Assembly (NCBI GenBank): GCA_951406725.2
Contig: OX597819.1
Span: 126,170,001 to 126,234,000 of the forward strand
Length of the DNA stretch: 64,000 nucleotides
Reading direction: 5' to 3'
DNA from: Octopus vulgaris
Taxonomy: Eukaryota
Shown here: positions 20,502 to 49,494 of the stretch, one piece after another
Layout of the letters: every line of letters starts with the position of its first letter
Numbering within the stretch: the first letter of the stretch is position 1
Translations under genes and position numbers: made by a program
Notes under the pieces: generated by a model
Database searches by the model: none
The model's input: the letters and a program-made list of their open reading frames with translations, nothing else
Told to the model about the DNA's origin: nothing

Positions 20502-21273
20502 TATATATATATGTCTGTATGCATGTATGTTTGCAATCACACCATATACAGACATAATTTATGGTAAATCTTCGATATTCTCATTATGTGGTGTGTATGT
20601 GTGTGTGTTCTTTCTTTTATTCTTTTTTGTTTGTTTCAGTCATTTGACTGCAGCCAAGCTGGAGCACCGCCTTTTATACAAGTTCATTTAAAATTTTTCC
20701 TGTTTGTTCAGTTCCCATAAACTTACTGTATTGACTAAGCTATAGAGTCGTCGAGTTGTGCACTCTCACTCAGTCAGTGGGTTAAATATTTCGCGCACTC
20801 ACACAGAGACACAAACACACACATTTATGTATGTATACACACACATACACACACACAATGTATGGAGAAAGTATGATCAACGAACGACCAATGTGTATAC
20901 ATATATGCCTGTGTGCATCTCTATCTGTGTGCATATACATATATATATATATATATATATATATATATATATAAATATCTGTAAAATAATATGTTACAAT
21001 TACTCAAAAGTCAAGATAAAACTCTGACTTTCAGATGCCGAAGTGGAAATACCCAACACCATCTCTTCGTTTATCTGGCCATCTGAAAAAATTCCTCTAT
21101 TTACACAATATTGAGGTCTCTTTCTTTCTTTTGTTATCTTACCGTTTTTACCAATATATATATATATATATATATATATAAAATATTATTAGAGACAAAA
21201 CCACTATTTTGCAAAACAAACAAGGAAAGACTTAATCAATACATAAAATTTTAATAAATAGTAAAAAAAACCG

Positions 21274-21316
21274 CCACTACAATCGTTTCTTGTCTTGATC
21301 GACAATCTTCAGGTGG
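21274..21316 (-). ncRNA. Minimal type I hammerhead ribozyme (left arm)
   Basis: Reverse complement of 23196-23238. Confidence 0.88.
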
Positions 21317-23195
21317 ACTTCAATAAGAACATACTTATCATCAACATCATCATCATTTAACATCCGCTTTCCATGCTGGCATGGGTTGGATGGTTTGGCA
21401 GAAGCTGGCAAGTTGGAGAACTGCATCAGGTTGTTCCTGTTGGCATGGTTTACAGAAACATTGGACATTCTTCATAATGCCTATCACTTTACAGTGTGTA
21501 GTGGATGCTTTATATGTGGCACCAGCATGGGTGCTTTTGATGTAAATCAATAACATAACTGAAATTAATTTGACTGTATTGTGTGTGTGTGTGTGTGTGT
21601 GTGTGTGTGTGTGTGTGCTTGGACACATTTTCATTCTGTAATGTGAACGTTTTTAGTTGGATGCAACTCTGTTGAAGAATGTGGAGGCAGCGTATAGATT
21701 TGAACTCAGAGCCCGGAGAATCGGAACATGTGTCGTAATATATTCTATGGAATGTCCCAACAAGACAGCCGATGTGTAATAGAGGCGCCGTTGTTGATTG
21801 AAGAGCACTTATAATGCAAATTAAATTTTTAAAAAAAGTGAAAGCGGATAGACGGAACATAAACCAACAGTTTGCAATTTATATTGTTTGTATTTCCATA
21901 TTGTGGGTATAAAAACCTTTATCAAGAGAAAATGGATGATGGGGATGAAATGATATATTTTACTCACATATATATGAAGCGTCTGCGATATGAACTGAGT
22001 CATATATCATATATAACCAATCCAGTTTATATAACTCGCGTCTGTTGTCAATATATGGATTCAGATTAATAATAAGGATAATCTCCTTAATCCCGAAATT
22101 ACGTTTCCTTTTCAAGTTTCGTGGTAACAGCGATGATATCGGTAAGGTATTTCCTCAAGTGTTTCTTTACTGACGTGATAGAAGCTGGACTTGATAGAAG
22201 CTGGACGTGTTTTTCGCTGCTCTGACCAACCCAGCGAGACAACGGAAAAACTGGAAGATCTACTGTTTTCTGTTTAATAATTTCGAAAAGTGGAGTGTGG
22301 GGTTTCCTTAATATTAAAGAAGAGACAAGTCCGCACAAATACATCAGTAAAGAAACACTTGAGGAAATACCTTACCGATATCATCGCTGTTACCACGAAA
22401 CTTGAAAAGGAAACGTAATTTCGGGATTAAGGAGATTATCCTTATTATTAATCTGAATCCATATATTGACAACAGACGCGAGTTATATAAACTGGATTGG
22501 TTATATATGATATATGACTCAGTTCATATCGCAGACGCTTCATATATATGTGAGTAAAATATATCATTTCATCCCCATCATCCATTTTCTCTTGATAAAG
22601 GTTTTTATACCCACAATATGGAAATACAAACAATATAAATTGCAAACTGTTGGTTTATGTTCCGTCTATCCGCTTTCACTTTTTTAAAAATTTAATTTGC
22701 ATTATAAGTGCTCTTCAATCAACAACGGCGCCTCTATTACACATCGGCTGTCTTGTTGGGACATTCCATAGAATATATTACGACACATGTTCCGATTCTC
22801 CGGGCTCTGAGTTCAAATCTATACGCTGCCTCCACATTCTTCAACAGAGTTGCATCCAACTAAAAACGTTCACATTACAGAATGAAAATGTGTCCAAGCA
22901 CACACACACACACACACACACACACACACACAATACAGTCAAATTAATTTCAGTTATGTTATTGATTTACATCAAAAGCACCCATGCTGGTGCCACATAT
23001 AAAGCATCCACTACACACTGTAAAGTGATAGGCATTATGAAGAATGTCCAATGTTTCTGTAAACCATGCCAACAGGAACAACCTGATGCAGTTCTCCAAC
23101 TTGCCAGCTTCTGCCAAACCATCCAACCCATGCCAGCATGGAAAGCGGATGTTAAATGATGATGATGATGATGATAAGTATGTTCTTATTGAAGT

Positions 23196-23238
23196 CCACC
23201 TGAAGATTGTCGATCAAGACAAGAAACGATTGTAGTGG
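23196..23238 (+). ncRNA. Minimal type I hammerhead ribozyme (right arm)
   Basis: ccac CUGAAGA uuguc gaucaa gacaa GAAAC GAUU GUA gugg. Full core and perfect helices I and II. Confidence 0.88.
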
Positions 23239-48332: not shown

Positions 48333-48584
48333 TGTATATGTATATGTATATGTATATATATATATATATATATATATATATATATATATATATATATATA
48401 TATATATATATAGATATAGATGTGTGTACGTATGTATGTATATATATATGTATATATATACATAAATATACATACATACACACACACAGACACACACACA
48501 CACACACACACACACACACACACACATATATATATATATATATATATATATATATATATATATATATATATATATATATATATA

Positions 48585-48993
48585 AAAATAAGAAAATGGA
48601 GGAATACATCTAAATCATTTATCAACTACCAGATAATACCCAATCACATACTTTATTAAACCACTACATAAGAACATTAGGGTTAAATTAGCTCTTTAGT
48701 GTAGTGGTCTTTAGTAGGGATGGGTACATCCTTCATTGATGAATTAATTAGTATCTTCTCCATTTTACTTGCAGTAATGATCCTGCAGGAACAAATGTAC
48801 TATACTAGGGTATATTCACATACACTATCAATACTTAGAGTAATGAGTGGATGTTTCGAGTACACAAGTATGAGCAATTCAGAGAGCTAATTTAACCCTA
48901 ATGTTCTTATGTAGTGGTTTAATAAAGTATGTGATTGGGTATTATCTGGTAGTTGATAAATGATTTAGATGTATTTCTCCATTTTCTTATTTT
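48585..48993. mobile_element. Fold-back unit: 111-bp near-perfect arms, 187-bp spacer, right tail to about 49170, (TA)n on both sides
   Basis: 48585-48695 is the reverse complement of 48883-48993. Confidence 0.92.
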
Positions 48994-49230
48994 GTATTAT
49001 TAATTTATGCTAAAAATAATTCTACCTTTGCCCATGTAATACAGTAAATGAATTAATTGCATCGCAATTCTTAACATTTATGTATTAACTTTGTTGGGTA
49101 CTTCACTAGCAGTATATTGGATATGTGTTATCCCATAGGGGGTTGAATTTGCAACCCCTATCTCAATTTGTATATAAATATATATATATATATATATATA
49201 TATATATATATATATATATATATATATATA

Positions 49231-49494
49231 ATAAATATTAGGGAATAAATCCAAACTTAGAGGGAAAAATCAGATTTAGGATTGAATCCAATTTTATAGT
49301 AAAATATTATATTATATTAAATTAGAGACAAAACCACTATTAGGCAAATCATACAATGAAAAACTTAAGCCAATACATAAGATTATTTAATTTATATTAT
49401 TTAAATATAAATTAAATAATCTTATGTATTGGCTTAAGTTTTTCATTGTATGATTTGCCTAATAGTGGTTTTGTCTCTAATTTAATATAATATA
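49231..49494. mobile_element. Family-A fold-back: perfect arms of about 90 bp (49308-49398 and 49404-49494) plus left tail, (TA)n on both sides
   Basis: Direct reverse-complement comparison. Confidence 0.93.

Follow-up and report, generated by a model that had tools for sequence, protein, structure and literature searches.

Family A loci in the window

The window, the 64-kb stretch of octopus DNA analysed here, is microsatellite-rich animal DNA with 193 tandem-repeat rows (TRF) and a GC content mostly of 25–40%, and its dispersed repeats presumably are of the octopus SINE kind. Self-BLAST places one sequence family, here called family A, at six loci, comprising three fold-backs (E1, E2 and E3), two solo copies and one diverged tail-only piece. 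Its anchor motif (gtggttttRtctctaat) has eight matches in the window against 0.01 expected and its tail-end motif five against 0.00 expected; a GTDB scan with the anchor motif, directed at possible host contamination, returned 0 matches. The loci and their parts are as follows.

11369–11461, plus strand: diverged tail-only copy, flanked by microsatellites
13258–13520, minus strand: solo copy with long-site end and hammerhead motif at 13444–13485 (self-BLAST, alignment, descriptor scan)
19861–20043, plus strand: solo 5'-truncated copy with long-site end, without hammerhead
21177–23418: E1 fold-back
21177–22176, minus strand: E1 short (inverted) arm, about 1 kb, its short-site end against the (TA)n tract 21154–21180
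21274–21312, minus strand: minimal type I hammerhead motif in the E1 short arm (descriptor scan)
22177–22340, unstranded: E1 unduplicated spacer, 164 nt
22341–23335, plus strand: E1 long arm
23200–23238, plus strand: minimal type I hammerhead motif in the E1 long arm (descriptor scan)
23336–23418, plus strand: E1 one-sided tail, about 76–87 nt, then (TA)n
32042–32212: E2 fold-back
32042–32106, minus strand: E2 short arm, 22 bp paired (32044–32065) plus 41 nt of more-upstream family-A sequence not present in the long arm
32107–32212, plus strand: E2 long arm, of which 22 bp are paired, followed by a tail of about 80 nt that runs into (ATT)n/(TA)n
49231–49494: E3 fold-back
49231–49307, minus strand: E3 one-sided tail, about 73–82 nt, adjoining (TA)n
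49308–49494, unstranded: E3 near-perfect hairpin with A/T-only centre and a loop of about 5–9 nt
49308–49396, minus strand: E3 long arm
49406–49494, plus strand: E3 short arm

Across an alignment of nine arms, 5' truncation is variable, 3' ends are fixed and poly(A) is absent, and all nine 3' ends adjoin (TA)n or (ATT)n. The tail-only copy runs from the A/T patch of the short site to the long site. A direct tandem pseudo-LTR (pLTR; partial tandem), an optional feature in a small sample, was found by self-BLAST at 0 of the six loci.

The E1 long arm shows family-A homology only from about 23190 on. The 850 nt upstream of that point have no second copy in the window (self-BLAST) and hold a (CA)n tract, together with a segment ending in (TGA)n that we take to resemble the 3' end of an octopus SINE. 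They gave no match to open reading frames of Penelope-like elements (PLEs) in tblastn and no Pfam match in six frames of the inner arm, and a word-index protein search with the 186-aa open frame of the arm matched 0 of 3,736 candidates. This extra sequence is either adjacent DNA acquired through a read-through transcript or element body carrying an older insertion; in rotifer PLEs, read-through transcripts carry neighbouring DNA (PMC3846280).

Outer ends, tails and inner junctions

End positions are counted from the last base of the anchor (...CTCTAAT). The preliminary description had placed the short-arm ends of the three fold-backs at 21177, 32042 and 49494, all at the same position a few bases beyond the anchor and running into (TA)n. 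Coordinates are correct, and the shared position is best given as three ends inside an 11-nt window rather than one base, each blurred by TA microhomology: +7 to +11 in E1, +1 to +2 in E2 (about +7 at most if the family's own TA-like bases are included) and +8 to +13 in E3. Under a uniform null, three ends inside 11 nt have P = 0.016–0.036, a modest value at n = 3. The long arms, described as continuing for about 80 bp, end at +81 to +94, leaving a tail of about 75–87 nt that is one-sided in 3/3 fold-backs. Altogether, 9/9 family-A 3' ends lie at two sites, six at the long site (three long arms and the three solo copies, the tail-only piece included) and three at the short site, which is used by all three inverted arms and by 0/3 solos.

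The inner boundaries are as variable as had been proposed, from 22 bp to about 1 kb, with paired arm lengths of about 1,000 bp (E1), 22 bp (E2) and about 90 bp (E3). The insertions are also independent, as claimed: flank-to-flank local scores are 13–19 against 196–222 for self-comparison, and a 67-nt core is 76.5–85.1% identical among the three loci. Within this core the two arms of E1 are 100% identical to each other, as are those of E3. Over their full length the E1 arms differ in 8 of 1,000 alignment columns, namely three substitutions and five gap columns (99.2% identical), with one of the three substitutions within the innermost 7 bp of pairing (P = 0.021, post hoc). A 16-nt tandem duplication at the E1 inner junction (22172–22209) suggests that slippage or a template switch took place at this point. 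The 41-nt spacer of E2 continues the short arm in the 5' direction (score 54 on the minus strand, 10 on the plus strand), so that this short arm reaches further upstream than the long arm and is no simple copy of it.

Such long, near-identical arms (99.2% over 1 kb in E1, identical in E3) between error-prone microsatellite flanks are also what fold-back chimeras of library preparation, sequencing or assembly would produce. This is the least probable of the explanations considered, and the earlier argument against a sequencing artefact stands: the outer sites recur in three unrelated flanks, the E1 arms carry substitutions, seven fold-backs of other families in the window have arms 77–89% identical, as aged insertions would, and the structure is known from other animals (PMC8557442, PMC3846280).

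Base composition is a confound for reading these boundaries as fixed, with A/T-only runs lying at the fold point and at both ends. In the solo copy at 13.3 kb, A/T-only runs of at least 10 nt occur solely at −93 to −56, −4 to +20 and +79 to +92, which is where E3 folds and where the short and long ends fall; TATA/ATAT 4-mers cluster at +1 to +25, at +77 to +85 and at about −70 to −90, and in the E2 long arm also at +65/66. Since both ends fall within A/T-only patches, pairing with (TA)n may set the end positions. On this basis the family could be a PLE whose short site is not protein-defined, its ends falling wherever the template pairs with (TA)n, with few such patches available in family A. 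The coincidence of the 4-mer clusters with the ends, the match of the three A/T-only runs to the fold point and two ends, and the start of the tail-only copy (11369) at the same patch as the short site all agree with that account. It is nevertheless judged improbable, given that in the fold-backs at 58.4, 48.6 and 30.7 kb the flank and the continuation of the long arm do not match at the first base, that no 3' end uses the −93 to −56 patch and that the short patch ends none of the three solos.

Within the tail, four of five copies show a direct repeat, weak and about 38 nt long (23345–23411 and equivalents); between 4 and 13 of 1,000 shuffles are as good, with 229 for E2, and the copies are not independent. 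By this sequence comparison, the tail of about 80 nt may be a doubled 30–40-nt unit. A small hairpin also lies inside the tail, at 23345–23411 and equivalent positions. A common recognition motif repeated at the short and long ends found no support, with 91–847 of 1,000 shuffles scoring equally well, and neither did a conserved RNA structure across the tail when compared with shuffles (z between −0.3 and +0.2 in three copies; −1.1 and −1.4 in two stretches of E1).

Relation to Penelope-like elements

A strict hammerhead descriptor finds six matches in the window and none in any of 20 shuffles, and both independent family-A copies of sufficient length, E1 and the 13.3-kb solo (n = 2), carry the motif. 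The E1 long-arm motif (23200–23238) combines a 4-bp stem I, an exact core, a 5-bp stem II and a minimal helix III, with a predicted cut after 23234; the motif of the 13.3-kb solo (13444–13485, minus strand) has a palindromic helix III and keeps stem II around a different loop. The predicted cut lies 98–101 nt upstream of the short end and 177–184 nt upstream of the long end, and the hammerhead strand sets the sense of the family, so the arms are joined head-to-head. No Rfam family reaches its gathering score, and the hammerhead monomer folds no better than shuffles (z of 0.03 and 0.44). Published PLE hammerheads have a minimal core, a short helix I and a small palindromic helix III, and are thought to act as dimers (PMC4209133); the family-A motif, a putative ribozyme, matches this shape.

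Family A is very probably the hammerhead-bearing pLTR end of a PLE. An inverted 5'-truncated copy lies head-to-head at three of the six loci, and an inverted 5'-truncated copy with a one-sided tail is the published PLE structure (PMC8557442, PMC3846280). What the preliminary description noticed is a known hallmark of PLEs; the family is new, the structure is known. The copies themselves are filed as truncated or non-autonomous PLE sequence: tblastn with 21 PLE-like proteins gave no match on any family-A copy, and Pfam over 15 frames (X at stops) gave two unrelated matches below threshold but no PLE domain. As every copy is 5'-truncated, the absence of an ORF from the copies is allowed.

Coding remains of PLEs do occur separately in the window.

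47362–48340, minus strand: broken PLE ORF remnant, separate from family A and interrupted by several stops and frameshifts; it spans the RT end and thumb, a CX4CXXC linker and GIY-YIG

This remnant, about 0.9 kb from E3, has 22 phmmer matches at E ≤ 0.001, and tblastn places these on the thumb, the CX4CXXC linker and the nuclease. GIY-YIG was matched by 6 of 16 scanned phmmer matches, four of them above the cut-off; the top phmmer match, P0001 (6,328 aa, 17 stretches), was excluded as repetitive from the GIY-YIG scan and from tblastn. The RT-thumb piece matched 0 of 86 candidates in a word-index protein search. The linker is of Neptune/Nematis type. For family A itself, Neptune type is the most likely, though tentative, placement. 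The CX2-5CxxC linker of the Neptune and Nematis clades is thus seen in a remnant separate from family A, and this motif may aid (TA)n recognition (PMC8557442). A degenerate hammerhead-like motif at 47289 lies directly past the end of the remnant; a second broken PLE ORF remnant occurs at 5043–5278 (minus strand), and a weak tblastn match, from one query only, at 3680–3994.

An origin outside PLEs, as a MITE or fold-back DNA transposon, a tandem retrozyme, or a LINE/SINE with twin-priming inversions, would fit the inverted arms and the lack of a linked ORF, and Tc1/mariner MITEs likewise insert into TA-rich targets. It is very unlikely nonetheless: three of six loci have no inverted arm, the arms are unequal with varying inner ends, a hammerhead is present, poly(A) is absent, and no tandem array appears in self-BLAST or among the first 150 of the 193 TRF rows. 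Each candidate was rejected on specific grounds. For a MITE or fold-back DNA transposon, matching terminal inverted repeats are lacking, the tail being one-sided, with three solos and variable inner ends; for a non-LTR retrozyme, self-BLAST shows no head-to-tail array of tandem family-A units with a hammerhead per unit; and for an L1-type twin-priming inversion, poly(A) is absent and arm overlap ranges from 22 bp to 1 kb. In L1 twin priming the inverted segment comes from another part of the RNA than the rest of the insertion, which has a poly(A) end, and the arms are not known to overlap fully as those of family A do.

Among described systems, EN+ PLEs share with family A the head-to-head inverted 5'-truncated copy, the one-end extension, the pLTR hammerhead, the palindromic or microhomologous inner junction, AT-rich or (TA)n targets and the capture of unrelated DNA beside the pLTR (PMC8557442, PMC3846280). 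They differ in a reported tail of 30–40 nt, a descriptive and non-defining trait, against about 75–87 nt in family A, and family A in the window has neither a linked ORF nor a direct tandem pLTR. In Poseidon of Anolis carolinensis (PAc), as described in PMC11167929, two starts downstream of the hammerhead likewise bound the tail and the target is AT-rich; the PAc start at +111–118 lies, by subtraction, 85–92 nt past the ribozyme cut, compared with 98–101 nt for the family-A short site. However, PAc starts lie in an AC-rich stem-loop without target homology, whereas family-A ends lie in A/T-only, (TA)n-pairable patches, and the PAc ORF starts in the hammerhead, whereas no ORF start was found in, or following, the family-A hammerhead. 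Non-LTR retrozymes (PMC7229834; bioRxiv 10.64898/2026.07.22.740005) are similarly non-coding, carry a type I hammerhead and have a proposed origin in PLE pLTRs, but form head-to-tail arrays rather than solos and head-to-head fold-backs. PLEs are abundant and recently active in octopus genomes (PMC13282606, PMC8967140). A literature search that met its sources partly as excerpts found no PLE tail above 30–40 bp, no octopus PLE fold-back and no PLE twin priming; Repbase and Dfam lay outside this search, and the supplement of PMC8557442, which lists Octopus Naiads, or that of the bioRxiv preprint may already describe family A.

Candidate routes to a fold-back and related structures in the window

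The reading favoured here, with a probability of roughly one half, is target priming on both strands at two sites of the RNA, followed by head-to-head joining of the two cDNAs. It starts from the architecture, the two-site ends, the ribozyme motif and the target type seen at the family-A loci, and borrows two RT start sites and two-strand cleavage from the anole element, which in vitro cleaves AT-rich DNA on both strands, extends each of them, and begins reverse transcription at two positions inside the RNA, one at either limit of the tail (PMC11167929). In the order of events that we infer, a partner RT/GIY-YIG protein supplied from elsewhere would nick both strands of a (TA)n tract, and one target end would prime reverse transcription at the distal site, giving the long end; in fold-backs, the other target end would prime about 80 nt upstream, at a second internal site, giving the short end. 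Both priming sites being A/U-only patches, brief pairing with the target would be possible. The two cDNAs would copy the same RNA, or RNA of the same locus, to variable lengths and then join head-to-head through a few complementary bases, the hammerhead being presumed active as a ribozyme. Two-site priming, variable copying and joining would thus yield fixed outer ends, a one-sided tail, a free inner junction and identical arms.

The preliminary description had deduced from the fixed outer and variable inner boundaries a defined RNA end or priming site. A defined priming site matches the PLE mechanism of PMC11167929; a defined RNA end is not required, because the predicted cut falls about 100 nt before the short end and reverse transcription by the published PLE begins within its RNA.

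The main rival is fold-back copying with endonuclease trimming, in which a PLE cDNA folds back at a chance hairpin and copies itself, and the GIY-YIG endonuclease then cuts back one hairpin end to the short site, which is rich in A/T, so that a tail remains on one side or the other. In the 67-nt core no variant separates the two arms of E1 or those of E3, the near-perfect hairpin of E3 lies within an A/T-only run, and the substitution within the innermost 7 bp of E1 (P = 0.021, post hoc) is what imperfect fold-back priming predicts; in the literature, the tail has been ascribed to EN-mediated resolution (PMC8557442) and self-priming has been argued for (PMC3846280). This route is nonetheless rated as rather unlikely. 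The E2 spacer, in short-arm orientation, would call for trimming of the strand that was made first, or for a flip afterwards; the E1 inner mismatch is equally expected from microhomology joining of two cDNAs, and the in vitro data place the tail at RT start sites (PMC11167929). The geometry of E2 favours two-strand priming, which accounts for it, whereas a single cDNA folding back from the long site needs a further step.

Several points nevertheless weigh against two-strand priming. Family A lacks a joined ORF, both in tblastn with the 21 PLE-like proteins and in Pfam on the E1 inner arm; only two independent copies reach the hammerhead, for which Rfam is silent and folding is like that of shuffles; the tail is about 80 nt, against 30–40 nt in print; the anole PLE primes without target homology, and family-A ends lie in TA-like patches; identical 1-kb arms are equally expected from fold-back copying; and family A has no direct tandem pLTR, with n = 3. 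Two-strand priming, fold-back copying and microhomology are not mutually exclusive.

Fold-backs are not confined to family A. A masked self-comparison lists 14 local inverted pairs: two of family A (E2 being too short to appear), three that were set aside (a dispersed-repeat pair at 18.2 kb, low complexity at 27.5 kb and a 29-bp pair at 34.8 kb) and nine of other families, with arm identities of 77–99%. In seven of these nine, one end lies within 14 nt of a microsatellite and the opposite side extends for 45–378 nt; masking halts alignments at microsatellites, so the abutting side arises partly by construction, but the asymmetry does not. Seven fold-backs outside family A, of unrelated sequence, carry a one-sided extension as listed here.

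16373–16598: one-sided extension of about 95–108 nt
30620–31133: one-sided extension of up to 114 nt, with exact-core hammerheads in both arms
48585–49177: one-sided extension of about 184 nt
53371–53687: one-sided extension of about 45 nt
53731–53997: one-sided extension of up to 75 nt
58436–58614: one-sided extension of about 71 nt
61866–62340: one-sided extension of up to 135 nt, with the 3' hammerhead strand of family A recognised by eye

A relaxed scan found no hammerhead in the fold-backs at 16.4, 48.6, 53.4, 53.7, 58.4 and 62.0 kb, so that their PLE status is read from architecture alone. The other two families each have a solo partner.

54169–54606: fold-back folded at a natural palindrome, whose left end is at the long site and whose right end stops about 80 nt before it; one-mismatch hammerhead at 54419
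12829–13195: solo of the 54.2-kb family, ending at the long site
46881–47174: fold-back with a tail of about 53 nt, just downstream of a PLE ORF remnant, target not (TA)n
1–110: solo of the 46.9-kb family, ending at the long site

A wider proposal, put forward as a doubtful extension of two-strand priming, would have both nicked strands prime at two family-specific RNA sites in octopus microsatellite-targeting PLEs generally, the sites being chosen partly by A/U-(TA)n pairing; tails would be long and family-specific (about 45–185 nt in the window), and the short site would serve only the second, inverted arm. Family A itself departs from print in its tail of about 80 nt, about twice 30–40 nt; its short site is confined to inverted arms. 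How PLEs come to form inverted repeats and tails is an unsettled question according to PMC8557442, and only one PLE has been studied in vitro (PMC11167929). A genome dense in short fold-backs offers a cheap test: across thousands of copies, spacer orientation, junction microhomology and tail length would tell two-strand priming apart from fold-back copying with trimming. About ten such structures occur in the 64 kb; if two-strand, two-site priming is true, thousands of natural integration products would be present genome-wide, and the PLE integration mechanism could be read from them directly. For annotation, these short inverted repeats could pass as MITEs, unknown repeats or assembly errors.

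Minor features of the window include three hammerhead-like motifs in short elements, two of which lie between (TA)n tracts.

46437–46467, plus strand: hammerhead-like motif in a short element
41534–41573, minus strand: hammerhead-like motif in a short element
12711–12742, minus strand: hammerhead-like motif in a short element, with a related copy at 61645–61764

The ORF fragment at 15200–15757 (minus strand) presumably derives from a mariner-type transposase and that at 38174–40216 (minus strand) from what we take to be an RTE-type LINE. An interstitial (TTAGGG)n run of about six copies lies at 34918–34951.
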